This document shows, piece by piece, positions 31,119 through 49,470 of a stretch of 64,000 nt of DNA; the first letter of the stretch is position 1; every line of letters begins with the position of its first letter. A model generated the notes under the pieces. It was not told where the DNA came from, did not search any database, and was given only the letters and a program-made list of their open reading frames with translations. Where the stretch lies: positions 49,413 to 113,412 of the forward strand of contig JBAPQW010000053.1 in the NCBI GenBank assembly GCA_049280815.1, in the 5' to 3' direction. Both the position numbers and the translations under genes were made by a program. Source of the stretch: Verrucomicrobiia bacterium. GTDB lineage: Bacteria > Verrucomicrobiota > Verrucomicrobiia > Limisphaerales > UBA11358.

Positions 31119-31421
31119 AGTTTTCCCTTGATCTGGATCTCGGATCTGATCAATTGATCTGGGCGTGCCGAAGAAGTCCAAACCAGCCAAACGCCAGCCT
31201 CTTTACCGGAAACCGCCGCCGAAGCCGCCCCGGAGCGCGGACAGCTTGTCCGCGAGAACCAAAGCCCCCAACTCGCGGGCTGGCAGCCCGCGCTCCAATG
31301 ATTTGCCTCACGCCCATCCCATCGCCCCATCACACTTCACCCTGCGCGAAGACGGTTCGGTTCAATCACAATCATCGATTCGCCAACGGACGGACGACAA
31401 TTCTCCCTCTCCCGGGGGAGA

Positions 31422-31509
31422 CTTGAGCCGATCGGGAATCGGCGAAAGGAATTCGACCGAAGGTGAAGGCCCGCGAGGGCCGAGTGAGCGGGAGCGAGCG
31501 AGTCATTCC
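31422..31509. repeat. ~90-bp element, family E, inserted in R1
   Basis: cttgagccgatcgggaatcggcgaaaggaattcgaccgaaggtgaaggcccgcgagggccgagtgagcgggagcgagcgagtcattccc. Second copy at 44057-44147. Confidence 0.75.
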
Positions 31510-31756
31510 CGCCCTCCGCCATCATCAAACGCAAGCCGCTCTCATCCACCGCACGCCGTGCCGGCTGGGTCGGATGCAACTTCGCCCTGAATCGCATCCC
31601 GGCAGATGCCCGGATAGCAGTCGTCACGGAAAGTCAGGTCATGCCCGCTGCCGAAGTCCGGAAACAATTCCGTCACATCAAACCGCTGAAAGAAATCGGC
31701 ATCAAAGAACGCGGCTGGACTCTGGACGTGTTGAACATCGTGCGACGCATCAGTGA

Positions 31757-31807
31757 GGTAGGGCGGCGCTGCTGCGCCGCCCGGCCGAGCGGCAGCTCGG
31801 CCCTACC
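31757..31807. repeat. family C REP hairpin inserted in frame in R1
   Basis: ggtagggcggcgctgctgcgccgcccggccgagcggcagctcggccctacc. 51 nt (17 codons), translated as VGRRCCAARPSGSSALP inside ORF 31641-31973. Confidence 0.85.
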
Positions 31808-32000
31808 AGATAACACCTTCACCACCGCCGAGGTTTATGCGTTCGAACGCGAACTGGAAAAACTCCATCCCGATAATCGGCACGTCCGCGACAAAATCCG
31901 TCAGCAGCTCCAAGTCTTGCGCGATGCCGGTTTGCTATTGCACATTGGCCGTGGTGAATGGCGCCTGCCGTGATTTATTTCTCAGGAGGGAACGCGGGCG

Positions 32001-32423
32001 CTAATTCCGGTTGAGGACGAAGTGTCTGGCGCCCGGCGCATCAAAACCGGCCGGCACTTTGGGATTACCAGGCTGATTGCCCGTGATAGTGAGCGTGTCT
32101 CCCTCCACCCGGTAGATCGCGCAGCTGGTTTTGCCAATGTATTGGGGCTCGTGACATTGAGTTATCGTGCCCACCATCTGACGCGGATTCGTGCCTTCCC
32201 GGACGGTGAAGGTTCCCCGGCACCAATCGTCATTATTGGCCCCCTGGAATTCCAGCGTGTTGCCGGAGATGATAAAGCAACGCGAACCTTCCGGATTGCC
32301 GCCAATTTCATGGCCTTTCCATGTGCCTTGGAGCGTGGCCAAATCTGACCGCTGGGGTGTGGCGCAGCCCGAACCCCAAAGCAGCACCACGATGCAGACG
32401 AAGTTGAGGATATTTTTTCTCAT
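32001..32423 (-). CDS. TIGR03067-family lipoprotein
   Basis: MRKNILNFVCIVVLLWGSGC lipobox. LQGTWKG...GNTLEF......F.V....P..M........Y.GK....IY.VEGDTLT pattern typical of TIGR03067 as I recall it. Confidence 0.8.
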   Translation of the reverse strand: MRKNILNFVCIVVLLWGSGCATPQRSDLATLQGTWKGHEIGGNPEGSRCFIISGNTLEFQGANNDDWCRGTFTVREGTNPRQMVGTITQCHEPQYIGKTSCAIYRVEGDTLTITGNQPGNPKVPAGFDAPGARHFVLNRN

Positions 32424-32619
32424 AGGTTTATCTTTCGTGTTAAATCGGACAAAAGCAACGAGCTATCCTCACGCACAAAAAGGGCACCCAACGCGCCTGG
32501 CCATTCATGGCCGCCCGATTCCGAATGGATATGAGCTGTTGTACCCAGTACTGGTGACATGCAGGATTTGAGGATTGGAGTATCCTTAACCCAGATTTAG
32601 TAGTTCTCACTGTGTAAGG

Positions 32620-32653
32620 AAAGGCCGGCGTAGTGTCCGGCCTTTTTCTTTTT
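32620..32653 (+). terminator. rho-independent terminator with no obvious upstream CDS
   Basis: Stem aaaggccgg / ccggccttt with 8-nt loop cgtagtgt, followed by ttttcttttt. The T-run is only on the + strand. Confidence 0.7.
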
Positions 32654-32705
32654 AACCGTCGATTTTCCGCCTTTCCCATCCTGTTCATCATGTCAATCCG
32701 GGCTG

Positions 32706-32795
32706 CATTGAAGCATCAACCGGCTGTTCAGGCACATTTGTTGGTACATTTTCGTCTGTTTAGATTTGGGCCGGCCCTTCATTTTCGCCAGCAAC
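32706..32795 (-). repeat. family F element, copy F1
   Basis: cattgaagcatcaaccggctgttcaggcacatttgttggtacattttcgtctg... Minus frame reads LLAKMKGRPKSKQTKMYQQMCLNSRLMLQC. Confidence 0.7.
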
Positions 32796-33142
32796 TCCAA
32801 GTCCTTCCGCCTTCACCATGTTTCGGCGCGACAAGGCGCGATGCCGGCCGCTGCTTCACCTCGAGCGCGGTGTATGGCGTTTGCCGTTAAGTTGCGCGGC
32901 ACCCCCAACAGTTCCCGGCCCGGTCATCCCCTTCTTTCTGTTTCACCGCAACGGGTCGTGCTGGAATGAAACCGGAAGGGTTGGGTGCTTAATCACCGAA
33001 ATGATGATTTAAAAGACTAATGGAAATAAATTGATTAAATTAGTATATGGCATCTCACATGCTTGAATTACAACCATGTTAGCCCTAGATTTTAAGCATT
33101 TGTTCGATGCCAGCTGAACAAACAAGGATAGATGCCACGCTT

Positions 33143-33766
33143 ATGAAAACATTTCTCGCTTTATTCTTTTCCTTCACACTCTTCACCGCAACTGCCCAGC
33201 CGTCCCCAATTTATGTGGATTTCACGTCTCTGGGCATCGATACGGTGGATATTACCCTGGAAAATGACCCCGCCGGTCTCGCGCTGAATGGCATTACTCT
33301 GGGATATGATAACTTTGGAAGCTCGCCCGATTTCGCCTCTGCCGACCAAATCGGGATCTACGGGACGACCTATGGCGCTCTGGTCTTCAATTTTACTTCG
33401 CCGGAAACGGCCCTGAATTATGATTTTTCAGTGTTGTCGACCACCGGGCCGGACGCCAACGCCCTGGTCGTACTTTTCTTCGACGCTGGAAATTTAAGTG
33501 ACGTGGTAACGATTCCTGGTGTTTACACCCCTTACGACTTTGACGATGCGCGGGGGCAGATAGATGGTTCGCTCACCTACACTGGCCCGACCTTCGATCA
33601 AGCCGTTTCGTATTTCAGTCCAGTCCAGTCAGAACCGGAAGAAGACCTGTATTATTTCACCGTTGGCAATCTCTCTTATACGCCGGCTCCCGAACCCGCC
33701 AGTTGGCTGCTTGTTACGTTGGGTTTGGGCGGATTACTGGTCAAGGGCAGAAAAAGCGTAACTTGA
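33143..33766 (+). CDS. PEP-CTERM sorting-domain protein
   Basis: ATG at 33143 (MKTFLALFFSFTLFTATAQP). C-terminal TPAPEPASWLLVTLGLGGLLVKGRK. Confidence 0.85.
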   Translation: MKTFLALFFSFTLFTATAQPSPIYVDFTSLGIDTVDITLENDPAGLALNGITLGYDNFGSSPDFASADQIGIYGTTYGALVFNFTSPETALNYDFSVLSTTGPDANALVVLFFDAGNLSDVVTIPGVYTPYDFDDARGQIDGSLTYTGPTFDQAVSYFSPVQSEPEEDLYYFTVGNLSYTPAPEPASWLLVTLGLGGLLVKGRKSVT

Positions 33767-33814
33767 TGGATTTATTTTGGGCCGTTTTTTGGCCGAAAAG
33801 GTTTGTTTTTTCTG

Positions 33815-33965
33815 GGCCCACTGGCACCTGCACCTTTACTTGCGAGTTGGAAACTCTGCGCCCTGACCAACGGCAAATCCGGGATAAAGTCGCCAACCAC
33901 TCCAAGACCTGCGTGACCTTGGTTTACTGCCACACGTCGGTCGGGGCATCTGGCGTCTGCCTTAA
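33815..33965 (+). pseudogene. DpnI-family C-terminal relic, copy R2 (frameshifted)
   Basis: ..TFTCELETLRPDQRQIRDKV, then a +2 frame shift to RQPLQDLRDLGLLPHVGRGIWRLP* (stop 33963-33965). Compare R1 ..YAFERELEKLHPDNRHVRDKIRQQLQVLRDAGLLLHIGRGEWRLP*. Confidence 0.7.
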
Positions 33966-34169
33966 CGGGAGTTTGACTCCTTTGCAGCCTACTTGAGAAC
34001 CCCTGGCGCGGCGGTTTTTGAGAGGGTGACGTCTCCGCCGTCGGGCACAACGTCGAACATAACGTATGAAGTCGAGTTGGCGGTGACGTGTTGCGCGCCG
34101 ACCGGCTGATGGTTCTGGGAAACGGTGAACCGTGTTCTCGCCGAAGCGCGCATTGCTATCGTCATCACT

Positions 34170-34251
34170 CGTAGCAGCGGACGTGAGTCCGCTCCAATAT
34201 CTTCGGGAGAAAGTCGGGAAAGTCAGAGCCGACTCACGTCGGCTGCTACGG
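34170..34251. repeat. long-armed hairpin, family D, copy D1 (inside R3)
   Basis: cgtagcagcggacgtgagtccgctc ...loop... gagccgactcacgtcggctgctacg. Arms of about 25 bp. Confidence 0.85.
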
Positions 34252-34373
34252 TTATCGTTCCACCGGAGGAAGTTCGGGAAAAATTCCGTCACATCAAACC
34301 GTTGAAGGATATTCCCATCCAGATGCGCGGTTGGACGTTGGACGTGCTGAACATCGTCCGGCGGTTGGTGGAT

Positions 34374-34445
34374 AGTAGGAGACGAGGTAACGAGTCTGGG
34401 TCTGCGACCGGGAAGGGGGCCAGCCTCCTCACGTCGGCTCCTACT
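34374..34445. repeat. hairpin insertion (family D-like) inside R3
   Basis: agtaggagacgagg...cctcacgtcggctcctact. Complementary termini. Confidence 0.7.
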
Positions 34446-34555
34446 GGGGAATTCACCACCGCTGACGCCTACGCTTTTGAGGGCGAACTGGAAAAGCTCC
34501 ATCCCGACAATCGTCACGTCCGCGACAAAATCCGCCAGCAACTGCAAGTAGGTTT

Positions 34556-34610
34556 CCTTTTTGCCCGGATTTGCGTTTGCCGTTTAATGCAAATGCCGGA
34601 TGCAAAAAGG
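34556..34610. repeat. hairpin insertion inside R3
   Basis: cctttttgcccggatttgc gtttgccgtttaat gcaaatgccggatgcaaaaagg. Splits QQLQV|LRDA. Confidence 0.75.
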
Positions 34611-34665
34611 CTGCGCGACGCCCGCCTGCTGCTCCACGTTGGCCGTGGTGAATGGCGGCTTCCCT

Positions 34666-34752
34666 AGCTCCGTAGGAGCGGAATCTTTGTAGTTCCGTGC
34701 GTCCCCCAAAATTCCCAAGCCCCGTAGGGGCGGAATATGCCGCTCCTGACGG
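34666..34752. repeat. hairpin element (family D-like) just after R3
   Basis: ctccgtaggagcgg ... ccgctcctgacggag, with an internal ccccgtaggggcgg. Confidence 0.7.
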
Positions 34753-34855
34753 AGCTTAAATTTTGTTTCGGGTCTGATTCTACAGATATGCCGCGCCTAC
34801 GGCGCTTGTCTCTTCGTGCCTTGGCGTCTTGGCGGTTAAAACCTCGTCTTTGGCT

Positions 34856-34950
34856 CATTTGAGCATCAACCGGTGGTTCAGGCGCATTTGCTGGTACATT
34901 TTCTTCTGTTCGTCTTTCGGCTGGCCGTTCATGGCTGCCAGCACATTTCG
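34856..34950 (-). repeat. family F element, copy F2
   Basis: Minus frame reads NVLAAMNGQPKDEQKKMYQQMRLNHRLMLK*. Confidence 0.75.
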
Positions 34951-35204
34951 AAGGCTGAAGGCTGAACGCTAAAGGCTGAAGTAAAAACAAAACTCAACCG
35001 GATTTGAACAGGAGGAAACTCCGATAAATCGCGAGCAGGCGGAGGGAACGGAGGCTTTGCCTTTTCTGGTCCCCAACGTCTCTGCTGTCTCTGCGTGCTC
35101 CTGTTAAAACGTTTTGCTTTGCTGCTCCACATCGACCGCAGCCGCTGGCGTCCGTTGTGAAGACTGGCGCTAATTACGCGAATGGACGCACATCTTGAGT
35201 GAAA

Positions 35205-36752
35205 CTATTGTACACCGACACGATAGAAATAAGGGCCGCCGTTCGTGGCGCTGGTGTCTGTGAAGCTCGTCGTTCCGGCCTGGCCGGGAATATTGCTTTG
35301 AATCGTTGAAAACGCCGACGGCATCGTCAAATTGGTGCTGCTTTGGAGGTAATAGATCCGGTTGCTCACACTTTGCCAGCTGACGACGACGCCCGCCGGA
35401 CTGTTGCTGGGCAGTGGGGGCAGCATGGCCAGAATCGACAGGGCATTGGTGGGATTCAAGCCGGCAATCCAATCCTGATAGACGCTGAAGCCGGTGCCGT
35501 CCAGGTCGGAGGCATCAATGTTCGCTGTAATGGGCAGGCCATATTGCTGGAGCCACGCGTAGGAAATCTTGCTGACGGGCGTTTGGTATTCGTAAGCGCC
35601 GATGTCCACCGTCCCGCCGGCAAGGCGCGGGTTGCCGTCCAGGTCCGTGGTGCCGGTCACATAGTCATTGTTGCCGGAATTGATGCACGGGGACGTGGAT
35701 TGCAAATGATAATCGCCGCCGTTCTGGTTTGCGAAGAGAGGCGGGTTAGTGAGGTTGTTCTGGCCGCCGGGCGGAAGCGGGGTGGTACAACAATTGTAGA
35801 ATGTCCCGCCCGCGTAATTGTCCTGATAGACCAGAGAATAATAAAGGAATTTGTTCGCGAAGATTATGCAATTATCCAATGCCCCACCATAAACGCCGCC
35901 GCCGCGGGGCGGAGTATTTTTGGGAAAGTAAACAGTATTGTTGACAATGGTGCAATTCGTCGCGTTGCAATAAAAAAGCCCGCCGCCAATCGCATCGCCC
36001 TCCGGGGCAAAGTAGTTAATCGCATAGTTGTTTGCGATCAGGCAATTGTTCAAGGTGGAAGCTGCCGCACCAGCCCCCCACGCAGCCCGGTTGCCGACCA
36101 GGACACACCGGGTTAACGTGCATTCCAGCGCGCCGCCTCCTTCGCCAGCACCGACCCCCTGGCTGAGTCTCTGGGGTACCGTGTTGTTGGAAAGCAGGCA
36201 GTTATTCAGCACGGAATAAGCGGCACCAACGCCGTCACCGTACAGGCTGATATTGCAGGTGATTGTGCAATTGCTCAACGTGCCGTAAAACACCGCTCCA
36301 TAGTCTCCATAAACCGAGTTGCTGATTATCAGGCAGTTGAATATAAACACGTTGGTGGAAGTGCAGAGCACTCCCGCGCCCGCAAACATGGAATAGCCGT
36401 TGGTTAATGTGAATCCAATTAAAGTGGAGCCATCTGTCAAATTGGCGCAGACGTTTGCCTGATTGCCGTCAATTACCGTTACACCCGATCCGTTGACGCT
36501 TTGGATGGTTATCGCGTTGGTTGTTACGATTCCGTTTCGATAGACGCCGTTGGTCACCAGAATCAAATCGCCATTACTTGAAGCATTTACGGCATCCTGA
36601 ATGTTCGTGGCGGCGGTGCTCCAATCGGCAAAGGGCGGCACCGGATCGGTGCAGATCGGGCTCACGTAAAGCGTCGCCGCCGGGGCACGAAATAGAATGA
36701 ACCACCCAAAGATGGCAATCCAAATGTATTGCTTGGATTTCACAAGGTCCAC
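35205..36752 (-). CDS. right-handed beta-helix / choice-of-anchor-Q-like secreted protein with FYR-type tail
   Basis: GTG start at 36752, hydrophobic N-terminus. Beta-helix repeats (..N.....N...). TDLDGNPRLAGGTVDIGAYEY motif. Ends ..GGPYFYRVGVQ. Confidence 0.82.
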   Translation of the reverse strand: MDLVKSKQYIWIAIFGWFILFRAPAATLYVSPICTDPVPPFADWSTAATNIQDAVNASSNGDLILVTNGVYRNGIVTTNAITIQSVNGSGVTVIDGNQANVCANLTDGSTLIGFTLTNGYSMFAGAGVLCTSTNVFIFNCLIISNSVYGDYGAVFYGTLSNCTITCNISLYGDGVGAAYSVLNNCLLSNNTVPQRLSQGVGAGEGGGALECTLTRCVLVGNRAAWGAGAAASTLNNCLIANNYAINYFAPEGDAIGGGLFYCNATNCTIVNNTVYFPKNTPPRGGGVYGGALDNCIIFANKFLYYSLVYQDNYAGGTFYNCCTTPLPPGGQNNLTNPPLFANQNGGDYHLQSTSPCINSGNNDYVTGTTDLDGNPRLAGGTVDIGAYEYQTPVSKISYAWLQQYGLPITANIDASDLDGTGFSVYQDWIAGLNPTNALSILAMLPPLPSNSPAGVVVSWQSVSNRIYYLQSSTNLTMPSAFSTIQSNIPGQAGTTSFTDTSATNGGPYFYRVGVQ

Positions 36753-37065
36753 TGGCTGAATTTATCTGATTTTATCCACTATATTTTCGGATTACAAGCA
36801 AAATTCCCCCTCCGGACTGCGATGGTTTCGCCATTCACCGGCCGAAACCGGAAAATCTGGGTCCTTGGGAAAGCGGATGGTTCTCAATTTATATCGGCTG
36901 GGAGTAAGTGGCGTTAGATGTGGCTTTTAGATGAATTTATAGAATGATGCAGAATTGAATTCAGTCCATTCGGTTCATTCTGTCTTTTTGCCTTTGTGTC
37001 TCTGTGGCTATCCGCGTCCATCTGCGTTCATCTGAGGTTGAATCACTTCGGCAACGGCGGGGCGG

Positions 37066-37138
37066 CCAGGTGCATTTGCTGGTACATTTTTCCTCGGTTC
37101 GGATTTGGGCTGGTCATTCATGGCCGCCAGCACATTTC
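37066..37138 (-). repeat. family F element, copy F3 (truncated, frameshifted)
   Basis: Minus frame reads NVLAAMNDQPKSEPRK, then a +1 base (aggaaaaatgtacc versus aagaaaatgtacc) and truncation. Confidence 0.65.
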
Positions 37139-37173
37139 GAAGGCTGAAGTAAAAACGAAAATAGATGCCAATA

Positions 37174-37240
37174 CGGGCAGGAATCCGCCAGCATTCCCGC
37201 GCTGCGGGATCCTGAGCGACGTTGGTTTGTTAATGCGTCA
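37174..37240 (+). pseudogene. short DpnI-family tail relic, copy R4
   Basis: cgggcaggaatccgccagca[ttcccgcgctgcggga]tcctgagcgacgttggtttgttaatgcg gives IRQQ..ILSDVGLLMRQ, compared with IRQQLQVLRDAGLLLHIG. The leading gggcaggaatccgccagca is shared with R5. Confidence 0.45.
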
Positions 37241-37520
37241 GGTTCAAGCTCAGGCCTTCCTGATACGCCTTGGACAGGTCGGCCCGGCAGGCGGCAGGGT
37301 CTGAATTTGTGTCGCAGTTGTCCCAATGCACCCGAACCAGTCAGACAAATGCTAAATTCTAAAGGCCAAAGTGGGCCGGATTTCAGCCTTCAGCCTTAAG
37401 CCTTTTATTAGCGGTTCCCGCCCACGGTGCTGGTCGCCACATTGCCGCTGGCTGAGAACACCGTTTTGGTCGTGCAGCATCCGGTCGGGAACAGGATGAC
37501 AACCGCCGACGCGAATATTT

Positions 37521-37624
37521 TGACAGGATGAACAGGATTTACAGGATGAAAGCGATTTGGAATTGTTTTTGAACAGTTTGTTTTCATTATTTTCAAAATC
37601 CTGTCCATCCTGTTAATCCTGTCA
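37521..37624. repeat. ~100-bp unit flanking the GxxExxY gene (left copy), internally palindromic
   Basis: tgacaggatgaacaggatttacaggatgaaagc...aaaatcctgtccatcctgttaatcctgtca. Same orientation as the right copy at 38055. Confidence 0.8.
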
Positions 37625-37635
37625 TGTATTTCGAT

Positions 37636-38036: not shown

Positions 38037-38054
38037 TTTGTTAACTTTCTATTC

Positions 38055-40665: not shown

Positions 40666-43368
40666 TTATGGCCAATCGCCGTTCCGGAATTGGAACAAAT
40701 AGCGTCCGGGCACCTGACTGCCGGTGAAAGTTTCATAAATGAGACCTTCGGTCTGATTGGAGTCCAAAAATGATCCTGGAATCCCGGAGCCATCCAGTTC
40801 AAAAGTCGCGCCGCCATTATAACTGGCATAACCAACACGAGCCGGGTATCCACCCAAGCCGTCAGAGCCTCCGCTGGCGTCTCCGGTTTCCCATTGAACC
40901 TGGTTATAGTTGAATTCCATGTCGAAATCCCCGGCGCCAATATCCGAGCGATTGATGAGCACCAGTTGAAACGAATTCAGCTTGTCAGCATGGATGCTGT
41001 AATAGCCGACATTGACCCAGTTTACGACAAAAGCCGTATGGCCATCCACCGCACCGGTTCCATAGGTGGTGACGTATGAACCGCATGCCCGGGTATCCAC
41101 ATCGGCCCAAAAGGGAGCGATGATGTCTGTATTCAGGGAGTACAGATCGGATGGCGTGTAAATAGATAACGGGCCGGAGAAAGTTATGTTGCCATTATTG
41201 TTCACGTAAAGAGAGGAATAAGAAGTGCCGAAGAAATTGAGCGCCCAGTTTAGATAGATCAGCCCGGAGGAGCCGTCGTCGTTGGCGGGCAGGAACCCCT
41301 GATAAAAGCCGGGACGAACGGCAGACTCTTTATAGTGGAATCCAATATCCACCGTGCCGATGTCCACGCTTTGATCGGGGTCCATGGTATAACCGGAAAG
41401 GCCAGCCGCGGCGGCGGTCCGGCTGCCGGCGTCCACCAACGCGGTGGAAGACGAGGCGGAGGTGGCGAGGGCAACGTATCGGTTGCCGTATGGTCCCGGC
41501 GCGTAATTCAAGGCGGTCAGGGCCACGTCCCCGACGCCATTGAGTGGGGCGGCCACGGTACTGTTGTTATTGGCGTTATGGCCAAGGGCCACATAATTGT
41601 TGTAATTTCCATCCCCGCTGAACGAAACGGCCGATCCGTCATAAAGATTGTCTTTGATGAACCAATTGGGGTGAACCGTAGCCTGGCTATCCATATAGCT
41701 CAACGCGATGCTATTGCTCCAGAAGAGGTTATTGTAGAAGGATACACTGAGGGGGCTTTGAAGCACAACGTATTGGCCCGTGCCGTAATAATAATAATAA
41801 TAACCGTTGAAAAGACCAACCGTGCAGCGCTCGAGCAAATCGTTTTGTAGCGTCACCGAGGGGCCGGGGGAGCTGCTGTTGATATAGTTACCAACGCTTA
41901 AAGCGACCTCTCGCAGCGTGCATTTCTGCATGTTTAATATGGGAAAGTAATAGTCATATCCCTGATCAAACAAGGGTTGAACCTGACCTTGCATGTCCAA
42001 AGCAACAGAGTTTAGCGTGATGATTTTCGGCGAAGATGATGAAGCAATGCTGAAAACCGCACTGCCGGCAGTGCTGACATTGTTTAAACGAACCGGCTGC
42101 TCCTGCACGGAGGGATACCAGACCAGATGAGTCATTTGGGCTGGTTGTGCTGCGACGTTTATACCGCCGCCGCCTTGCATGACAAAGCCGGAAGTTCCGT
42201 ACATCGCGACGCAAACACCACCGGTGAGGTTGACCGGCGCCGCGTACATGGCGTATTGCGAAGCCAGATAATCCAAGGGGTCATAGTGGTAGCCCAGATC
42301 CGGCGTGCAGGTGTTGCGAGGCACAAGTTGATTCCAAGTGGTCCCGGAGTACTGGTAGGCTGGCGGATTCGCGGGCGGATAGGTGGTTTTTCCCAGGAGA
42401 TCATTGGCCAAAACGCCATTAATGTTATCCGAACCAACGCCGCGAAAGCCGGTGTCCGTCAGATAATAATTGCCGGCGCCTTTCGCCTGGAATGGGTTGC
42501 CCGTGGCGATGATCTGAGTGGTGCCAAACGGCGCCACCCCGTTGTTGTAAAAGCCATTGACGTCACCCTGGATGGTCTCGTCGTAGCCGATGGGGCCGAT
42601 GAGAAAGGCGGACATATTGGCAAAGATGCAATTTTCAAAATAAAAACCGAAGGGCGCATTATTGCCCGGCGAGGTTCCCAGAAAGGCCGGGACATGATTG
42701 GTCGTCCCGGTCGTTCCGGTGAACGTCGTGTTTTCAACCAGAAAATTCACGTAGGATGGGGTGTTGAATGCGGTTTGAACTGTCGCGAAGAGCAGGTTTC
42801 CCAGATAAACGCTGCCCTGGCCGGGCACATAGATGCCATTGGCGCAGTTGACCAGCTGTCCATGAAAAAGCTGGAGCGAGAAAGAGACGGAACTGGCCGT
42901 GATGGCTTGTTGAGCGTAAGCGATGCGGAAATACGACATCGTCCAGCTCGCCGGCGGACTGTTGTAAAAGCTCAGGGCGGTGCTGGCATAATAGCCCGAA
43001 GGATTGCCGGTAGAACCGGAAATGGTATTGCCCACAGAATTGTCATCCTTGGCCGTAAAGATCACCGGATGGTACGCGGTGGCTTGGCAATTAACATTTC
43101 CAAGGTTCAATGAAGCTCCGACCGCATATTTGATCACCGCTCCGCCTTCGAAGGTGGCTGTGCCACCCAGCGTTATTGCATTGGTGACATAATAGGTGCT
43201 ATCCCCCCGAAACGTGTAGTTGTTGTAATTGACCCCGCTGCTCAACGTTACTAGTGTTGCCGGTGCGGTCGTGCCGGACATCAGTAGAACCATAATGGAG
43301 ACAGCGAATGCAAAGGCGCTTCGAACGGTGGAATGACGGCAGACGGAACGTTTAGAGGATGTTTTCAT
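40666..43368 (-). CDS. 900-aa secreted protein with beta-helix-like body and C-terminal NIDO (nidogen-like) domain
   Basis: Signal or TM N-terminus. C-terminal ~200 aa (about 40669-41270): ..LNFFGTSYSSLYVNNNGNITF...DIIAPFWADVDTR...FVVNWVNVGYY......NSFQLVLI......FDMEFNY..VQWE...., matching the NIDO pattern (IAPFWADVD). Confidence 0.8.
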   Translation of the reverse strand: MKTSSKRSVCRHSTVRSAFAFAVSIMVLLMSGTTAPATLVTLSSGVNYNNYTFRGDSTYYVTNAITLGGTATFEGGAVIKYAVGASLNLGNVNCQATAYHPVIFTAKDDNSVGNTISGSTGNPSGYYASTALSFYNSPPASWTMSYFRIAYAQQAITASSVSFSLQLFHGQLVNCANGIYVPGQGSVYLGNLLFATVQTAFNTPSYVNFLVENTTFTGTTGTTNHVPAFLGTSPGNNAPFGFYFENCIFANMSAFLIGPIGYDETIQGDVNGFYNNGVAPFGTTQIIATGNPFQAKGAGNYYLTDTGFRGVGSDNINGVLANDLLGKTTYPPANPPAYQYSGTTWNQLVPRNTCTPDLGYHYDPLDYLASQYAMYAAPVNLTGGVCVAMYGTSGFVMQGGGGINVAAQPAQMTHLVWYPSVQEQPVRLNNVSTAGSAVFSIASSSSPKIITLNSVALDMQGQVQPLFDQGYDYYFPILNMQKCTLREVALSVGNYINSSSPGPSVTLQNDLLERCTVGLFNGYYYYYYGTGQYVVLQSPLSVSFYNNLFWSNSIALSYMDSQATVHPNWFIKDNLYDGSAVSFSGDGNYNNYVALGHNANNNSTVAAPLNGVGDVALTALNYAPGPYGNRYVALATSASSSTALVDAGSRTAAAAGLSGYTMDPDQSVDIGTVDIGFHYKESAVRPGFYQGFLPANDDGSSGLIYLNWALNFFGTSYSSLYVNNNGNITFSGPLSIYTPSDLYSLNTDIIAPFWADVDTRACGSYVTTYGTGAVDGHTAFVVNWVNVGYYSIHADKLNSFQLVLINRSDIGAGDFDMEFNYNQVQWETGDASGGSDGLGGYPARVGYASYNGGATFELDGSGIPGSFLDSNQTEGLIYETFTGSQVPGRYLFQFRNGDWP

Positions 43369-43439
43369 AGTTTGATGGAAGTTATGACGTGTCCAGTCGC
43401 TTGCCCCAAGGAAAATGTGTTATCTGGCGCGGCCATCTA

Positions 43440-43811
43440 TTATCCGGCGCGGCCATTGGTTTGCCGTGAACGGACAACTTCCGTCTGGCCGTCGCTCCAA
43501 ACAAGAAATTCCGTGGGGGCGATTCCATATTGTAACTTAAACTCCCGGGAGAAATGGGAAACCTGTTTGAAACCAAGCCGAAAGGCAACGGCTTTTACCG
43601 AACGAAGTCTTTTTAGCATCCTGCCTGCCCGAACCAACCGTTGCTCGTTCAGCCAATCCTGCGGACTATATCCAAAGTTGGTCTTTGTATAACGCCGCAA
43701 TTGTCGCGGGGAGATTTTCAGCTTCCTTGATAAGAGCGGGGCGCAGTAGGTTGATTTCTCAGCCAGTTTTAGCCATTGCTGAAAATTAGTGGGACAAGCC
43801 AGCCGCGCCAT
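43440..43811 (-). CDS. AraC-family HTH protein (DNA-binding domain only)
   Basis: 123 aa. ..LSRKLKISPRQLRRYTKTNFGYSPQDWLNEQRLVRAGRMLK...VKAVAFRLGFKQVSHFSREFKLQYGIAPTEF is a double HTH of AraC/XylS type with no sensor domain. Lies 71 bp upstream of the NIDO protein gene on the same strand. Confidence 0.85.
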   Translation of the reverse strand: MARLACPTNFQQWLKLAEKSTYCAPLLSRKLKISPRQLRRYTKTNFGYSPQDWLNEQRLVRAGRMLKRLRSVKAVAFRLGFKQVSHFSREFKLQYGIAPTEFLVWSDGQTEVVRSRQTNGRAG

Positions 43812-44022
43812 AAGTGAATTTATTGGTCAAGTGACTGATGCTTATACGCGTAAACACGGTTCATCTTTCAAAAAGTTGCAGTTTTTATGCCCGGCAAGAG
43901 GATATGTTTCCTGGCGTGTCTCCACAGTTTCATCAACGATAAAGGGGCTTGACCTTTTACATCAAATGAAACAAAAACGGGTCAATCTGGAGTATTGAAA
44001 CAACTGCGGCCCAGCCTAAATC

Positions 44023-44262
44023 TTCACGTGTGAGCTGTAAAAGCTCCATCCCGACGCTTGAGCCGTTTGGGAAGTGGCGAAAGGAATTTGACCGGAGGTG
44101 AAGGCCCGCGAGGGCCGAGCGAGTGGGCACGAGCGAGTCAACATCCCGGCATGTTTACGACCATTCCGTAAATGACACGGGGCAGGAATCCGCCAGCAAC
44201 TCCAGGTCCTGCGCGACGCCGGACTGCTGCAGCACCTCGACCGTGGCCTCTGGCACCTGCCG
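44023..44262 (+). pseudogene. DpnI-family tail relic, copy R5
   Basis: FTCEL*KLHPD (gaa->taa), then the family E insertion, then ..IRQQLQVLRDAGLLQHLDRGLWHLP. Confidence 0.65.
44057..44147. repeat. family E element, second copy (inside R5)
   Basis: cttgagccgtttgggaagtggcgaaaggaatttgaccggaggtgaaggcccgcgagggccgagcgagtgggcacgagcgagtcaacatccc. Confidence 0.75.
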
Positions 44263-44309
44263 TGTACTCCTTCTTACCGCCAAGTCGCCAAGTATTGGGA
44301 AAATATATC

Positions 44310-44370
44310 AAGAAATCTCTGCGTCTCTGTGGCCAAAAACCTTGGCGTCCTCTGCGCATTGGCCGTGAAT
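44310..44370. repeat. family A half-element plus B tail
   Basis: aagaaatctctgcgtctctgtggccaaaaaccttggcgtcctctgcgcattggccgtgaat. Confidence 0.65.
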
Positions 44371-44382
44371 ACGGCTTCCGTC

Positions 44383-45078
44383 TTACCACACAAACGGGAC
44401 CAGCCGGTAGCGGATGCGTTGGCAATATTCGGAATAGCCGGGCAGGTCGCGTCGCAGATTTATTTCCTCGTTGAGCAATCGGAGAACAAGGATTGGGACC
44501 ATGAGCGCAACCACGGGCAGCGCAACCAACGAGCCGAGCGCCAGCGGCAACCAGAGCCAGATGAGCAGCGAGACGGAATACATAGGATGTCGCACGAGGC
44601 GGTAAGGACCCTGGTCGGCGACGGTCTGGCCGGCCTCGACTTGAATGATGCTTGCGGCAAAGCGGTTGGCATTGCAAACCGGAATAAGCAATAGATAACT
44701 TCCGGCATAGAGGAGCAAAGCCAGCGTCGTCAACCACCACGGCACGGGCACCAAACTGGTTCGCGACCAGCCAAAGCGATTATCCAAGCCGCACAACAGA
44801 TAGAAAATAACGGAGACGTTTTTTAAAAGGAACATGATGAATTTTTGCGTGCCGATTTTTTCCTTGCGCAGCAGCCGGCGGGCGAGGAATTGGGGATCGC
44901 GTTTATAAAAATAAGCGCAAAAGAGAATCATGACGGCGAGATTTACGGCCATAAACGCCCAGCCTTGCCAGAATTTCAAAGTGCCGGGGACAAACAAAAG
45001 AACCGTCAGCACGATCTGGCCGACCAAACCCCAGCCGATCAGTCGCCACATGAGGCTTTTGGTTGGTGGATTTTCCAA
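44383..45078 (-). CDS. isoprenylcysteine carboxyl methyltransferase (ICMT/PEMT-like) family membrane methyltransferase
   Basis: Polytopic. GPYRLVRHPMYSVSLLIWLWLPLALGS and ..EEINLRRDLPGYSEYCQRIRYRLVPFVW are typical family motifs. The start at 45078 is TTG; alternative ATG at 45051. Confidence 0.85.
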   Translation of the reverse strand: MENPPTKSLMWRLIGWGLVGQIVLTVLLFVPGTLKFWQGWAFMAVNLAVMILFCAYFYKRDPQFLARRLLRKEKIGTQKFIMFLLKNVSVIFYLLCGLDNRFGWSRTSLVPVPWWLTTLALLLYAGSYLLLIPVCNANRFAASIIQVEAGQTVADQGPYRLVRHPMYSVSLLIWLWLPLALGSLVALPVVALMVPILVLRLLNEEINLRRDLPGYSEYCQRIRYRLVPFVW

Positions 45079-45149
45079 TCGCCGCAGGTTGCCATTTTTG
45101 GCGCTGCGTTGCCAGCAGCTTCAACTCGTGCTCGGTGCAGCAGCTTGGT

Positions 45150-45251
45150 CTATTTAAACATCAACCGGTTGTTCAGGCGCATTTGCCGGTACATTTTCTT
45201 CTGTTCGGATTGCGGCTGTCCATTCATTGCCGCTAACATGTCCAGCAACAT
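45150..45251 (-). repeat. family F element, copy F5, intact 33-codon mini-ORF
   Basis: ATG at 45251: MLLDMLAAMNGQPQSEQKKMYRQMRLNNRLMFK*, beginning 4 nt after the stop of the upstream gene. Confidence 0.7.
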
Positions 45252-45254
45252 TTT

Positions 45255-46577
45255 CTAGGGAACCTTGCGCACGACGACCACTTCCATTGACCTTTTCTCG
45301 GGCACAAGTTCAAGCCCCAGTGTTTTTACGGCGTCGATCATCCCGGCAATGTTCGGGTGCGAGTAGTCCTTTTGCGTCCATTTGATGTCGAAGTCGTAAT
45401 GGTTCGTCAGGCCCGTTTCATTCAGGACCAGTTTCGCGCCCGAGATTTCCAGTTCTTCGGCCAAGGCGCTGAGGGGTTGATTGGTTGCTGCCGCCTCATT
45501 CCAAAATGCCGAGTATTTTCCGTCAGGGTTGGTGCTTTTGGACAACGTCTCCAGACTGGCAGCATTGGTTTTCAACACCCACACGTCAATGTTCCGCATT
45601 TCCCGTTGGACGGTCAGGTCAAAGGAGGCGGCGACGGCCTGGGCGAAGACCGCTTCCAAGTTGGTCTGGTTTCGCGACGGCCGATTCCCCGGCGGCAAGG
45701 TAATGTAAAAGTCATATTTATTCGTCGGGAGTTCGGCATCGGCGACGACACGGTTTGGCTTGACCGCAAAAACGATTTCAATTGCCCGCTCCAATGTGTC
45801 GTTTTGGGCGGTCATGGCCCGGGCTGACCAGGTTTCAACCGGCCGGTCAGACATCCGGCGATTCAGCGCCGGCGGCTGGTTCGTCCGCGGGGATGCCGTG
45901 GTTGAATTGGTTGGCGTGGGCCGGATCATGACTTGAAACATCGGCTTTATCCCCGCCAGGTATTGAGCGGGAATCATGCCGGGCAATTGTCCGCCATCGG
46001 AGGTCCAGTACTCAGTCGTCACTATCCTCGAGGAAACCGGATTCGTGACAGAAGTTTGTCCACCCGCCGGTGAGCCCGGTGAGCCATCCAGGCATGCTTG
46101 AATCGTTGCCGCCTGAAGCACGAAGGGCTCGGTAATGGCGGCAATGCGGCCGTGAGCGTCAATAATCACCGTGTGTGGAATCGCCATAACCCGATACGGG
46201 GTGTTTTCGCCAAGCCCGCCGTCGGGGCCCAGGCCGAGCCACGCGTGGATGGGGGTCTTTTTGAGGAAGCGCATGATCCCGCTTTCCTTTTCGTCCGTAA
46301 CGGCAATGAACTGCACCGGCTTGTCTTTGAACTCGTCCGCCAGTTCATTCATATGCGGAATGTAAGCGACGCAGGGTCCGCAGCTGGTGGCCCAGAATTC
46401 CAGCACCACCACCTTGCCGGTCGGCCAGCCTTGTGAGGCTTCGGGCGGTGCCTGCAGCCATTTGGACAACTTCAATGCGGGAGCCACCTGACCAACTTGC
46501 GGACCGTCTGGAAGACTGGTAGCCCTGACCTCCGACAGGCAGGCGGCGAAGAGGAGCAAACAGACCCAACTTTTCAT
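45255..46577 (-). CDS. TlpA-like thioredoxin domain fused to TIGR03435-family domain
   Basis: ATG at 46577 (MKSWVCLLLFAACLSEVRA). Redoxin block VVVLEFWATSCGPCVAYIPHMNEL (CGPC). C-terminal half ..NKYDFYITLPPG..., NHYDFDIKWT..., LGLELVPEKRSMEVVVV is TIGR03435-like. Confidence 0.8.
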   Translation of the reverse strand: MKSWVCLLLFAACLSEVRATSLPDGPQVGQVAPALKLSKWLQAPPEASQGWPTGKVVVLEFWATSCGPCVAYIPHMNELADEFKDKPVQFIAVTDEKESGIMRFLKKTPIHAWLGLGPDGGLGENTPYRVMAIPHTVIIDAHGRIAAITEPFVLQAATIQACLDGSPGSPAGGQTSVTNPVSSRIVTTEYWTSDGGQLPGMIPAQYLAGIKPMFQVMIRPTPTNSTTASPRTNQPPALNRRMSDRPVETWSARAMTAQNDTLERAIEIVFAVKPNRVVADAELPTNKYDFYITLPPGNRPSRNQTNLEAVFAQAVAASFDLTVQREMRNIDVWVLKTNAASLETLSKSTNPDGKYSAFWNEAAATNQPLSALAEELEISGAKLVLNETGLTNHYDFDIKWTQKDYSHPNIAGMIDAVKTLGLELVPEKRSMEVVVVRKVP

Positions 46578-46708
46578 TTGGACCGGATTCCGGGAGTCTG
46601 GCTGGGGGTCGGGCATAGTCCAATTAATAAACTCCACCCGGCGGACAAAGTTTCGATACCTGCGTGGCTGGCCGCTGGACATGCAGAACATCGTTCGACA
46701 GTGGTGCA

Positions 46709-46764
46709 AGATAGGGCGGTGCTGCTGCGCCGCCATCCCCGGCAGAGCGGCGGCTCTGGGTGGC
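46709..46764. repeat. family C REP variant
   Basis: agatagggcggtgctgctgcgccgccatccccggcagagcggcggctctgggtggc. Confidence 0.65.
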
Positions 46765-46901
46765 CTGATTTCCCATCCCCCACAGCGCCCTCTCCAGGCG
46801 CACAGTAGGTTTTAACCCTCCGCAAACTGTAACATAGGGGCTTCCCTTTTGAAGCCATCGCCAGGATTTAATAAAGTTCACACTCGAATTATGCCGAGTT
46901 G

Positions 46902-46946
46902 AAAATAAAAAAAGGGTGATTCCTCCGACTTGCAAGGAATCATCCC
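46902..46946 (-). terminator. rho-independent terminator (minus strand)
   Basis: Minus strand reads gggatgattcct tgcaagtcgg aggaatcaccc, followed by tttttttatttt. Confidence 0.7.
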
Positions 46947-47021
46947 CTTTGATTCGGCATTATCAGTTACACGGCACAATGGATGGCGCGCCGCTGCGAG
47001 GTGTAAACCACCGATTGACTT

Positions 47022-47186
47022 TCAATCAGCCTGCACAGCGACAATGTCCATTAATTCGCGGTTATTGGAGAATGACCTCCATTTGCCGTATTTGTCCAAG
47101 ACCGCCAAACACATATAATTGTTGCCACGAACCCAGCGCGGCTGGCGTTTTTCCGGGAGCGGTTCTGCGGCCAGGCAATCACTCAT
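47022..47186 (-). CDS. possible 54-aa protein (unannotated small ORF)
   Basis: Not in the ORF track (<60 aa). MSDCLAAEPLPEKRQPRWVRGNNYMCLAVLDKYGKWRSFSNNRELMDIVAVQAD*. Followed about 75 nt later by the terminator at 46902-46946. No clear SD. Confidence 0.35.
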   Translation of the reverse strand: MSDCLAAEPLPEKRQPRWVRGNNYMCLAVLDKYGKWRSFSNNRELMDIVAVQAD

Positions 47187-47245
47187 GCAAAGGGTGGATG
47201 TTTTTATTCATTGTTTAACAGGGTAGTTCTTTTGAACGCAAATCA

Positions 47246-47265
47246 CATGGGGTGTTCACCCCAAC
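47246..47265. promoter_or_regulatory. left arm of a perfect 20-bp inverted repeat (candidate operator)
   Basis: catGGGGTGTTCACCCCaac. The arm itself contains the near-palindrome GGGGTGnnCACCCC. Confidence 0.5.
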
Positions 47266-47370
47266 GCCGCAATGAATAATCCAACCTGGTCCCGGCCGAA
47301 GTTTCGGGGATGCAAAACGTGCCGCAGCCTGTCTTCCTGGCGTGGCGGGCGCTGGACGCCATGATTACTG

Positions 47371-47390
47371 GTTGGGGTGAACACCCCATG
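47371..47390. promoter_or_regulatory. right arm of the perfect 20-bp inverted repeat
   Basis: gttGGGGTGAACACCCCatg is the exact reverse complement of 47246-47265. Lies 35 bp upstream of ATG 47425. Confidence 0.5.
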
Positions 47391-47424
47391 GCGGACGCGT
47401 GGTTACACAGCCCATCTTCATGGC

Positions 47425-47664
47425 ATGAAACATAAAAAGTTATCCCCGCACCAAAACCACAAACCGGCCATTGCAGGAGGGCCAACGGCGACTGCGGATT
47501 TAAACCCTGGTGGAATTGATTTTGCGCCGTCCGCGGACGAAGTAGCTAAAAGGGCATATTTCAATTATATGAACCAGGGTTCGCTGCCCGGGTACGAGGT
47601 GAAGCACTGGCTGGAGGCCGAGGAGCAATTGCTCGCGGAACGCAAGCTCGCCCAGTCAAATTAA
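47425..47664 (+). CDS. DUF2934 domain protein
   Basis: ATG at 47425. PSADEVAKRAYFNYMNQGSLPGYEVKHWLEAEEQL matches the DUF2934 pattern (..I...AY..Y...G...G...DW..AE..L). Confidence 0.75.
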   Translation: MKHKKLSPHQNHKPAIAGGPTATADLNPGGIDFAPSADEVAKRAYFNYMNQGSLPGYEVKHWLEAEEQLLAERKLAQSN

Positions 47665-47689
47665 AATAAAATCCCCGCGTCTTGCGCGG

Positions 47690-47875
47690 TTTAAGCCTCG
47701 CCTTGAATCGTGTCCCCGCCGAAGCCCGCATCCCACTCGTTATCACCCGTAGCAGTCCCGCAATGCGGGATGAGTCCGCTCAAATATCCTCGGGAGAACA
47801 TCGGGAAGGCCAGAGCCGACTCACGTCGGCTGCCACGGTCATCGTTCCGCCCGAGGGAGTTCGCGCGCAATTCCT
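47690..47875 (+). pseudogene. DpnI-family relic, copy R6 (middle segment only)
   Basis: LALNRVPAEARIPLVITRSS[family D hairpin]VIVPPEGVRAQF.. Same insertion site as in R3. Confidence 0.65.
47747..47838. repeat. family D hairpin, copy D2 (inside R6)
   Basis: ccgtagcagtcccgcaatgcgggatgagtccgctc...gagccgactcacgtcggctgccacgg. Confidence 0.8.
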
Positions 47876-47933
47876 CGCGTCAAGCCGCGGAAAGACATAT
47901 CAACCAGCAACCACTTTGCGGCAGAGATGCGGA

Positions 47934-48575
47934 TCAGTTCGGGGCAATGACATGGAACGAGTTCGATTTCACCTCCACGTCCAAACCGGCATAGATGCTC
48001 TCGGCGGAAATCACATGGACTGGACTCCACTGTAAATTGACTAATTGAGCCTTCAGCTCCGTAGGATTGTTAAATTTTCGTTCCACAACCACCCGTTCGG
48101 CCACATCTATGCGCAAACGATTTTCCAGGAGAGCATAGTTTTTATTTGCCTGATCCAGACTGGCCTGGGTCAAGGCGATTTGGCTCGTGAGGCCGGCCAT
48201 CTGGTTGGTCAAATCCAGGCCGCGCCGGTCCAAGGTTGTTTGTAAAGTTTGATTTTCCGATGCCAACTCCGCGACCTGCAGGTTCAGGTTGGTGATTTGC
48301 TCCGTGTCGAGAGCCATGGCGGATTGGGCTTCAATCAGATGGTTTAAAAGCGTCAATGACGCCGACTGGCATTCGTCGAGGCGGTTGGAAATGACGGCCA
48401 TCGTTCCATTGCAAATGGCGATTTGGGTCTGCGCCGAGTCCAGCCGGTTCGAAAAATCGGCAATCGCACCGGCATCATTTTCGTGCTCAGCGTTATTGCC
48501 GCGTTTCATCACGATGAGGAATATGACCAACACGGCGCATGCCAATGCGAGGACGATGGATAAATATTGTTTCAT
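47934..48575 (-). CDS. membrane-anchored coiled-coil protein
   Basis: MKQYLSIVLALACAVLVIFLIVM N-terminal TM, then a long heptad-rich region. 213 aa. Confidence 0.7.
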   Translation of the reverse strand: MKQYLSIVLALACAVLVIFLIVMKRGNNAEHENDAGAIADFSNRLDSAQTQIAICNGTMAVISNRLDECQSASLTLLNHLIEAQSAMALDTEQITNLNLQVAELASENQTLQTTLDRRGLDLTNQMAGLTSQIALTQASLDQANKNYALLENRLRIDVAERVVVERKFNNPTELKAQLVNLQWSPVHVISAESIYAGLDVEVKSNSFHVIAPN

Positions 48576-48982
48576 AAAACAGTCAGCGCAATCCCATCAG
48601 ATTCATGTTCGCTCATCACTGAAAATGTCGCAACGATTAAACCGATTGGACAAGAATGGATTTGTTACGATTCCGTTACACCCGGATACAAGGCGAATTG
48701 GGTGGATTCAGACGGATTGATATCGAACCGAATCGCTCGTCCCCAAATCTGTCCTGGCTGGAGCCGGGGCATCCAGCCAGGGTTTGTTCCTGCCCCAACT
48801 TCCGCCTTCATCTGATTCCGGCGCGGCGCGGCGGGTGTAGCGGCTTTCGGCAGAAAGCCGCATTTTTATCGGCGGCGCCCTGCCGAGACGCCGCTACGCC
48901 AGAAACCGCGCCTCGACCTTGGGGCAGGTGGCAGGTGACCTGGAAATCCATACCGGTGGGGCGAGGTTCCTGACAAATCGGT

Positions 48983-49025
48983 AAAAAAATCCGCGTGGAT
49001 GTCTCCCGACATGCTCACGCGGATT
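48983..49025 (-). terminator. rho-independent terminator (minus strand)
   Basis: Minus strand reads aatccgcgtg agcatgtcgggagacatc cacgcggatt, followed by ttttttt. Confidence 0.6.
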
Positions 49026-49164
49026 CCAGTTAACCCTATGAAACAATCAATCAATCAAATGTCCTAAACTAACATGGTAAACTAGCGTGACTCCGCCCAT
49101 GGCGTCAAATCCCAGCCTGTCGTCTAATTGTGTGACGTCCGGATAAATCAATTCGAGGACGAGA

Positions 49165-49470
49165 ACGAGGAGAATGAAACACGCTTCTTCCCGCCCGCTG
49201 GCATCATCGGAATGGCGGTGTTGCCGCGCCGCCCCCAATTTCAGGGCAGAGCGGCAGCTCTGCCCCACCATGCTGGACCCTGAACGTGCTGAACAGCGTG
49301 CGAGGGTTGTCCCTTACCCGGCCTGCCGGCCACCCTCTCCCATCCGATGGGCGAGGGACTTTCACCACCGCCGATGTTTACGCTTTCACCCGCGAACTGG
49401 AAAACTCCATCCCGACACTTGAATCGGGTCTGGCGTCCGGGATCCTGGTTTCTTGGGAACACGTCACGTG
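49165..49470 (+). pseudogene. DpnI-family relic, copy R7
   Basis: ..[REP]WTLNVLNSVRG...TFTTADVYAFTRELE, then a 1-bp deletion (gaaaactccatcccgac versus gaaaaactccatcccgat) and a divergent tail ending TGA at 49468-49470. Confidence 0.6.
49214..49269. repeat. family C REP variant inside R7
   Basis: ggcggtgttgccgcgccgcccccaatttcagggcagagcggcagctctgccccacc. Confidence 0.65.

Follow-up and report, generated by a model that had tools for sequence, protein, structure and literature searches.

This analysis concerns a 64,000-nt stretch of contig JBAPQW010000053.1 (assembly GCA_049280815.1), called the window below, which holds at least ten pieces of a gene of the DpnI restriction endonuclease family (Pfam PF06044/PF17726), all on the + strand and all between 31.5 and 49.5 kb. 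Translated and profile searches found no piece of this family on the - strand or elsewhere in the 64-kb window. A natural explanation is that the region is the wreck of a conserved two-gene operon, in which the gene of a CcrM-like beta-class adenine methyltransferase was followed by that of the DpnI-family endonuclease. On balance, we consider it probable that the array of pieces was made by serial recombinational insertion and replacement at this one restriction-modification locus.

The pieces were mapped in the window by a translated search with a close homologue and by a profile of intact relatives; loci fetched from relatives have L numbers (L001, L002, and so on). From left to right, the pieces are:

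31503..31973, + strand: R1, codons ~101-255 of the resident nuclease gene, stop codon included
32802..32886, + strand: extra piece Rx, an N-terminal segment joined to the last 12 codons (LLHLERGVWRLP)
33835..33965, + strand: R2, codons ~213-255, frameshifted, ending at the stop codon
34126..34667, + strand: R3, codons ~140-255, still open (180 aa)
37174..37240, + strand: R4, a marginal remnant of ~65 nt (IRQ...LSDVGLL)
44023..44265, + strand: R5, codons ~212-224 and 231-255, split by the D18 element (44057-44140)
46663..46761, + strand: extra piece R8, RGWPLDMQNIVRQ and then the R1-type GGTAGGGC..GCCCTACC hairpin; profile match at 46663-46701
47688..47875, + strand: R6, codons ~141-172, sharing its hairpin with R3; profile match at 47688-47741 and beyond
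48722..48915, + strand: extra N-terminal piece, codons ~23-60 and the GTAGCGGC..GCCGCTAC hairpin; profile match at 48722-48835
49271..49417, + strand: R7, codons ~188-222 with a hairpin insert

A first-pass annotation of this DNA had listed at least seven decayed copies on the + strand. The intervals of R1, R2, R3, R5, R6, and R7 stand, R4 is marginal, and three pieces had been missed. R1 had been drawn from 31150 to 31973; it is nuclease sequence from 31503 onward, and 31150-31502 consists of the promoter and stump of the methyltransferase gene and an 85-bp element. The assignment to the DpnI/Dam-replacing family, with the linker and the C-terminal winged-helix domain, is borne out by matches to PF17726 and to the R.DpnI structure 4esj, and part of the catalytic domain is covered as well. 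Thus, the open reading frame (ORF) of R1 at 31641-31973 (110 aa) matches PF17726 with E 6e-23 and that of R3 at 34125-34667 with E 5e-15, both above the curated cut-off, and the conceptual product of 31503-31970 aligns with residues 122-255 of R.DpnI in 4esj (E 1e-33). R1 is interrupted in frame by the GGTAGGGC..GCCCTACC hairpin at 31757-31807. R3 contains two hairpins (34170-34250 and 34374-34445) and, at 34551-34610, a 60-nt insertion that adds 20 residues within the winged-helix domain. Frameshifts or stop codons interrupt R2, R5, R7, and the 32.8-kb piece. Codons 1-100 are intact in no copy of the window, the sole N-terminal piece (48722-48915) being broken by an insert at a motif. R4 and R5 have 19 nt in common without a mismatch (local score 38 vs a maximum of 29 in 300 shuffles), and R4 sits in a ~100-nt insertion of a lipoprotein pseudogene. 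The stretch from R1 to R3 is reproduced exactly, base for base, in an independent assembly (a Logan contig of SRR27973166).

The operon and the borders of the variable interval can be recognized from the following features of the window:

29095..30993, + strand: gene of an NHL/beta-propeller repeat protein (Pfam NHL/SBBP), the left syntenic marker
31126..31164, + strand: promoter/leader of the methyltransferase gene, conserved in an alignment with L003, L006, and L017
31165..31360, + strand: 5' stump of the methyltransferase gene, ~65 codons (MPKK...HPIAPSHFTLREDG), homologous to L003 8429-9862
31420..31505, + strand: D18 element, 85 bp, at the joint of a putative ~3-kb deletion
47934..48575, - strand: gene of a 213-aa coiled-coil protein, the right syntenic marker of the variable interval

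The stump, itself interrupted by a hairpin (I6) at 31232-31296, qualifies the first-pass statement that the window lacks a methyltransferase: none is intact, but the 5' end of the partner gene is retained. Its counterpart L003 8429-9862 encodes a 477-residue CcrM-like beta-class N6/N4 DNA methyltransferase with a match to PF01555. In L003, L006, and L017, the nuclease gene immediately follows a methyltransferase gene, and this order is seen in at least 45 of the loci fetched (Verrucomicrobiota, Acidobacteriota, and others); therefore, the resident unit is a methyltransferase-nuclease operon. In L001, a full methyltransferase copy is followed by a 3' fragment of the same gene, which is the pattern seen for the nuclease gene. 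Judging from L006 7075-10250, a deletion of ~3 kb probably joined methyltransferase codon ~65 to nuclease codon ~101.

The array occupies a conserved chromosomal place. The NHL gene has its counterpart at L003 6565-8349 (83.5% identity), upstream of the intact operon of that locus, and the 213-aa gene is 75-80% identical to genes downstream of the DpnI-family gene in L002, L003, L004, and L006; the two markers flank the operon in all four loci. L003 has one nuclease gene and no fragments, and its nuclease and 213-aa genes are ~3.6 kb apart, vs ~16 kb in the window. Homology between genomes on the upstream side reaches the operon, and on the downstream side it stops exactly at the nuclease stop codon. 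The genes inserted in the window are accessory ones (PEP-CTERM, BLUF, ICMT, redoxin, AraC, and others). A nuclease copy and the gene downstream of it recur between loci as modules: with the 140-aa gene in the window, L050, and L006; with the 213-aa gene in the window (R6) and L050; with a lipoprotein gene in the window (R3) and L006; and with BLUF in the window and L050. Thus, Rx has an orthologue in L050 that adjoins the same 140-aa gene, and R6 abuts the 213-aa gene just as a nearly complete, 5'-truncated copy does in L050. G+C content is 0.50-0.56 across the array (window positions 32000-50000) vs 0.56-0.62 in most of the flanking sequence.

Similar arrays, with several nuclease pieces near a main copy, were observed in L001, L004, L006, L017, L023, L025, L050, and L083. 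We took a census of strand and shape over the window and 17 loci (18 sources), scanning loci and not whole genomes. All 103 profile hits lie on the strand of the main copy. They merge into 52 copies, ten of them full length and never two in one locus. Pieces that are complete at the 3' end but truncated at the 5' end number 23, the reverse shape does not occur among the 52, and 19 are internal. In L001, L004, L006, L017, and L025, the most complete copy is the leftmost one and every fragment lies downstream of it. Fragment starts range from codon 21 to codon 238 and are loosely clustered at hairpin sites. With starts beyond codon 185, ten of the 23 3'-complete pieces are too short for the winged-helix domain; therefore, the 3' bias is not explained by selection on a truncated protein. 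The pieces keep to one locus and one strand both in the window and in seven other genomes, which points to local recombination and not to transposition.

No dedicated machinery for mobility was found with the array. As the first-pass annotation had stated, the window (~40 ORFs scanned) contains no intact nuclease gene and no transposase or recombinase; an intact methyltransferase gene is likewise missing. A Pfam scan revealed no tyrosine or serine recombinase among these ORFs or in seven other arrays, and the window contains no tRNA or tmRNA gene and no Rfam family. The pieces have no terminal repeats and no target-site duplications, the latter of which the first-pass annotation had proposed to look for; their 3' ends lie exactly at the stop codon, with unrelated flanks. 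L004 13887-14969 is an IS110-family transposase gene inside the variable interval, and an IS1595-family transposase occurs at another locus.

The divergence of the copies bears on how long they were functional. Copies within arrays differ mostly at synonymous sites, with synonymous divergence (dS) of 0.2-1.2 and a ratio of nonsynonymous to synonymous divergence (dN/dS) of 0.03-0.44. R1 and R3 have dS of ~1.0-1.2 and dN/dS of 0.03-0.18; dN/dS is 0.13 for R1 vs R5 and 0.16 for R5 vs R2. The range in other arrays, fragment-to-fragment pairs included, is 0.08-0.44, and such pairs in L050, L023, and L017 give 0.10-0.33; intact orthologues give 0.08-0.12. Because synonymous sites are near saturation and the protein is conserved, the copies were functional during almost the whole time since they separated. 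Selection at the protein level through most of the divergence also means that they were not copied as dead DNA, contrary to the first-pass proposal that some copies were made after inactivation. The idea that the pieces are silent cassettes that diversify the reading domain was dropped, as the pieces are conserved and not varied (dN is low).

The intact nuclease genes have a mosaic structure. The 5' part (codons 46-100) is common to L001, L002, L004, and L006, with dS of 0.13-0.7, but dS rises to 1-2.6 in the middle and 3' parts. The flanks of L004 and L002 are 88-94% identical and the current 3' part of L004 is 76.6% identical to that of L002, but the last 79 nt of an L004 fragment displaced 1.5 kb downstream are 91% identical to the L002 3' end. 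This pattern would be the expected trace of a foreign allele that replaced the 3' part and displaced the native one. The arrangement of R5 in the window matches this displaced fragment of L004.

The course of events could have been as follows. DNA of related bacteria would have recombined into the locus repeatedly, each incoming stretch comprising a diverged functional allele (or its 3' part) and the donor DNA behind it. The first crossover would fall in the conserved 5' part of the operon and the second joint farther 3'. Each event would leave one full gene, add cargo genes, and push the previous 3' part to the right, and the outcome would be a polar same-strand series of 5'-truncated, 3'-complete pieces with accessory genes between them. 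Hairpins would colonise the gene in frame at fixed codon sites. In the window, the single ~3-kb deletion would finally have killed the operon, leaving the methyltransferase stump and R1, and the remaining pieces, lined up downstream at the one locus, would be remnants of this gene from earlier times. The joining step could be homology-facilitated illegitimate recombination, the Campbell-type integration of circles that had been excised, or unequal exchange after a failed operon replacement. What was observed is the restriction of the pieces to one locus and one strand, their polarity and 3' bias, the divergence under purifying selection, the mosaic genes, and the lack of recombinases; the joining chemistry, like the route of DNA transfer, is what we infer.

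Several points weigh against serial replacement from relatives. The 19 internal pieces and several N-terminal ones need later deletions or nested events. Copies within one genome are 85-97% identical in L006, L017, and L083; therefore, some in-place duplication or gene conversion took place too. No single event was caught between near-identical strains, so the types of crossover and joint are deduced from their outcome. The census loci were picked because each holds a near-full copy. The dN/dS values come from short stretches (18-160 codons) picked by protein similarity, which biases dN downward. The negative result for recombinases covers, in five of the arrays, 25 of 30 Pfam families, and a weak hit could be hidden.

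The nuclease gene has five or six fixed codon sites at which palindromes of 50-130 nt with GTAG..CTAC tips occur, and different types of element are found at the same sites. By a strict count, hairpin density in or next to nuclease pieces is ~9 times that elsewhere in 336 kb, and only one of the ~8 GTAG..CTAC palindromes of the window lies outside such pieces; this suggests a gene unusually prone to in-frame palindromic insertions. Hairpins coincide with the 5' end of R1, with ends of the 46.7-kb and 48.8-kb pieces, and with the 3' end of R7. The first-pass observation that R3 and R6 carry a hairpin at the same codon position (34170-34250 in R3) and that R1 lacks it is confirmed on alignment, the two being 78-80% identical over 196 nt. 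The same type, however, is in frame and open to the stop codon in P0083 and P0084, two 5'-truncated ORFs from other metagenomes. One or two hairpins stand in frame in the full-length ORFs of L002, L006, L012, L016, and L017, and those of L006, L016, and L017 have other types in frame at the R3/R6 codon site. Therefore, the shared hairpin is no proof of copying after inactivation. As to the FTCEL variant, R2 and R5 both read it, as had been noted, but it is a single CGC-to-TGC/TGT codon change and weak evidence. A shared breakpoint of R2 and R5 was also considered as a proof of copying after truncation and rejected: the L004 counterpart of R5, with the same internal element, extends further 5', and the coincidence may be accidental. 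The R7 hairpin (49310-49357) codes for ..RP.GHPLPSDGRG.., and a copy of it at L003 8583-8630 (91.7% over 48 nt) keeps the reading frame of the intact methyltransferase, in whose N-terminal extension it lies.

Among other explanations of the array, local tandem or segmental duplication, by unequal crossing-over or by template switching at hairpins, with differential decay and later gene insertions, is unlikely but deserves attention. It would account for the single strand and locus, for the 85-97% identical copies within L006, L017, and L083, and for the fragment ends that coincide with hairpins. Moreover, the extension of a duplication to flanking genes, which the first-pass annotation had named as the contrary case, is partly seen: a second same-orientation family in the window, of five copies, derives from the 3' end of a lipoprotein gene, which in L006 is a neighbour of the intact nuclease gene. 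However, dead duplicates should diverge neutrally, and the observed values (dN/dS of 0.10-0.33 between fragments; dS ~1 with dN/dS of 0.13 for R1 vs R3) are not neutral; nor are two full-length copies ever seen in one locus. The 23:0 excess of 3'-complete pieces is unexpected from random decay, and the mosaic 5'/3' ancestry and the displaced fragment of L004/L002 point to foreign alleles. Polarity, with the full gene at the left and 3'-complete fragments at the right, and accessory cargo with lower G+C could also arise by tandem accretion of integrase-borne islands into the 3' part of the nuclease gene, each island bringing a replacement 3' end. This seems improbable, as neither the window nor the seven other arrays have an integrase or resolvase (the transposases are only those of IS110 and IS1595), the window has no tRNA gene, fragment starts spread over codons 21 to 238 with no shared core, and N-terminal and internal pieces exist.

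The first-pass annotation itself favoured an inactivated fragment that, with its hairpin, had become a mobile or self-propagating dispersed repeat. We regard this as very improbable. The hairpin at one codon of R3 and R6, the FTCEL variant and similar 5' end of R2 and R5, and the position of R4 within an insertion in another pseudogene would fit it, as would the GTAGCGGC..GCCGCTAC hairpin of the 48722-48915 piece, which is 91-99% identical between the N-terminal pieces of several genomes. Yet the pieces occupy a single syntenic interval on a single strand and have no defined ends, terminal repeats, or target-site duplications; they diverged under purifying selection; the R3/R6 hairpin is open in P0083 and P0084, and other types are in frame in full-length ORFs. 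Near-identical hairpins are explicable by an active family of palindromic elements. There is somewhat more to be said for 5'-truncated copies being kept as working stand-alone winged-helix proteins, such as methyl-DNA readers or operon regulators, although we still think this doubtful. R1 (110 aa) and R3 (180 aa) are open and match PF17726, relatives contain PF17726-only ORFs, and the operon promoter has a GATC-rich operator-like palindrome. Against this stand the ten 3'-complete pieces starting after codon 185, which cannot form the domain, the frameshifts or stops in R2, R5, R7, and the 32.8-kb piece, and the 20-residue insertion in the domain of R3. A further scenario, of rather low probability, makes the nuclease gene a capture site: palindromes would be targeted to the gene, the segments they delimit would serve as recombination sites for RecA or an unlinked enzyme, and modules would be taken up downstream in one orientation and exchanged among Verrucomicrobiota. 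If true, this would be a cassette-accumulating system without a recombinase of its own.

Serial replacement at a restriction-modification locus has partial parallels among known systems. Furuta et al. (2010; PMC2853133) described insertion with long target duplication at restriction-modification loci. Here too, an insert lies between long direct target repeats, mobility genes are absent, and an empty relative is available for comparison, as seen in a candidate toxin-antitoxin module of L006, in L004 vs L002, and in the fragment-free L003. The difference is that restriction-modification genes were the insert in their cases, whereas here the restriction gene is the repeatedly duplicated target and accessory genes are the insert; moreover, the events here would have followed one another with a fixed polarity, and diverged alleles take the place of near-identical duplicates as the repeats. 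Integrases are known to form tandem arrays of islands at the 3' ends of tRNA and other genes, an example being prophage e14 at icd. The arrays described here similarly consist of an intact target gene followed by same-strand displaced 3' fragments and cargo, but no integrase was found in them, a fixed crossover core is lacking, and some of the pieces are internal or N-terminal.

Hairpins of the repetitive extragenic palindromic (REP) type have GTAG tips, and Rickettsia palindromic elements insert in frame in genes. The 50-130-nt GTAG...CTAC palindromes resemble both, lying in frame in ORFs that stay open; unlike them, they are ~9 times denser in one gene family, and varied types share codon sites. 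Chromosomal restriction-modification complexes reportedly resist replacement (work of Handa et al., 2001), and in the minimal mobile elements of Neisseria conserved genes act as homology arms for cassette exchange. As in these cases, incoming homologous DNA at a restriction-modification locus would have been added beside the resident genes and not in their place. Those cases, however, were experimentally shown or are clean replacements, and here we see a serial stacking of gene remnants. We know of no description of such stacking at a locus of this kind, and a literature search for DpnI pseudogenes in Verrucomicrobia gave nothing relevant.

If serial replacement did occur, successive turnovers of alleles at a bacterial defence gene are recorded here in layers. 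Restriction genes would then be replaceable repeatedly by recombination with relatives, each replacement dragging in accessory genes, and the operon would be a growth point of the accessory genome that has no dedicated mobile-element machinery.

The nuclease itself belongs to the R.DpnI family (PF06044 and PF17726; PDB 4esj, 4kyw), of which the window pieces together span codons ~23-60 and ~101-255. The alignment of full-length relatives with R.DpnI runs from end to end (E 3e-59); they have both domains and contain two CXXC pairs and equivalents of E25, D53, and K66; PADLOC classifies an intact relative as a methyl-directed type II enzyme. The PD-(D/E)XK catalytic residues of R.DpnI are D53, E64, and K66, two CXXC motifs are present, and the alanine mutant of E64 is inactive (PMC3424567). 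At the position of E64, 75 of 77 homologues (main copies of L001-L080) have Q, giving an E-D-Q-K pattern, and E is retained in L079 and L080 alone. Enzymes of this family are known as solitary and dependent on methylation, DpnI cutting only Gm6ATC, and a linked methyltransferase gene is thus unexpected. The present genes differ from DpnI in being coupled to a methyltransferase gene and in the replacement of E64 by Q, and the window lacks an intact copy. Given the methyltransferase linkage and the E64Q change, a DpnI-like methyl dependence of these relatives is uncertain. They appear to form a widespread DpnI-like subfamily (Verrucomicrobiota, Acidobacteriota), paired with a methyltransferase and with Q for the catalytic glutamate, whose methylation dependence may differ from that of DpnI.

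Directly upstream of the methyltransferase start codon, five GATC sites occur in 31 nt, including the palindrome GATCAATTGATC. This segment (31126-31164) is the densest GATC cluster of the 64-kb window, and its core is conserved in L003, L006, and L017. From its sequence, the cluster may be an operator read via GATC or its methylation state, and it hints that GATC is relevant to the operon.

The D18 element (~85 nt, CTTGAGCCG..GAAGGCCCGCGAGGGCCGAG..) was observed only beside or inside nuclease pieces, in either orientation. Its two window copies, 31420-31505 and 44057-44140, are 88% identical, and the second one splits R5. Other copies lie at L050 2042-2133, L050 9919-10010, and L004 12207-12302. 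R7 ends where the D18-type element begins in R5, with what appear to be the first bases of D18.

The lipoprotein 3'-end repeats correspond to the last ~30 codons (..LAAMNGQPK.EQKKMYQQMRLNNRLMFK*) of a small lipoprotein gene, which is found in full downstream of the intact nuclease gene in L006. The five same-orientation copies in the window are:

32681-32793, - strand: lipoprotein 3'-end repeat
34823-34960, - strand: lipoprotein 3'-end repeat
37038-37149, - strand: lipoprotein 3'-end repeat
40309-40414, - strand: lipoprotein 3'-end repeat
45126-45255, - strand: lipoprotein 3'-end repeat

A longer pseudogene version of the gene extends over 37038-37608.

A candidate two-gene toxin-antitoxin module, so labelled by eye (PIN-like protein and a small partner), occurs at L006 14282-14937, L017 11886-12541, and L050 7082-7316. 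Its identity between genomes is 94-95% (95% for L006 vs L017), compared with 67-80% for their other genes, and each time it is embedded among nuclease pieces with sharp borders. The L006 pair is flanked by overlapping nuclease pieces (codons ~71-127 on one side and 66 onward on the other, an overlap of ~60 codons). Its borders in L006 and L017 have no repeats, and the flanking gene pieces lie outside the 95% identical tract. As evidence on homologous integration, the module in L006 and L017 points neither way: it neither proves nor excludes such a process.

A second family of dispersed intergenic repeats (GGCCACAGATG..CAGATGAAACGCAGATAAA..TCTGTG..CATCTGTGGCTGAAA) is found in the window at 23851-23925, 25211-25252, 25954-26031, 28960-29034, 31008-31082, and 50497-50603, and also in L002, L004, and L050. 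Finally, a run of 21-nt tandem units (TCAGCAATATTG..), partly palindromic, occupies 39458-39604, just upstream of a membrane protein gene (39661-40224).

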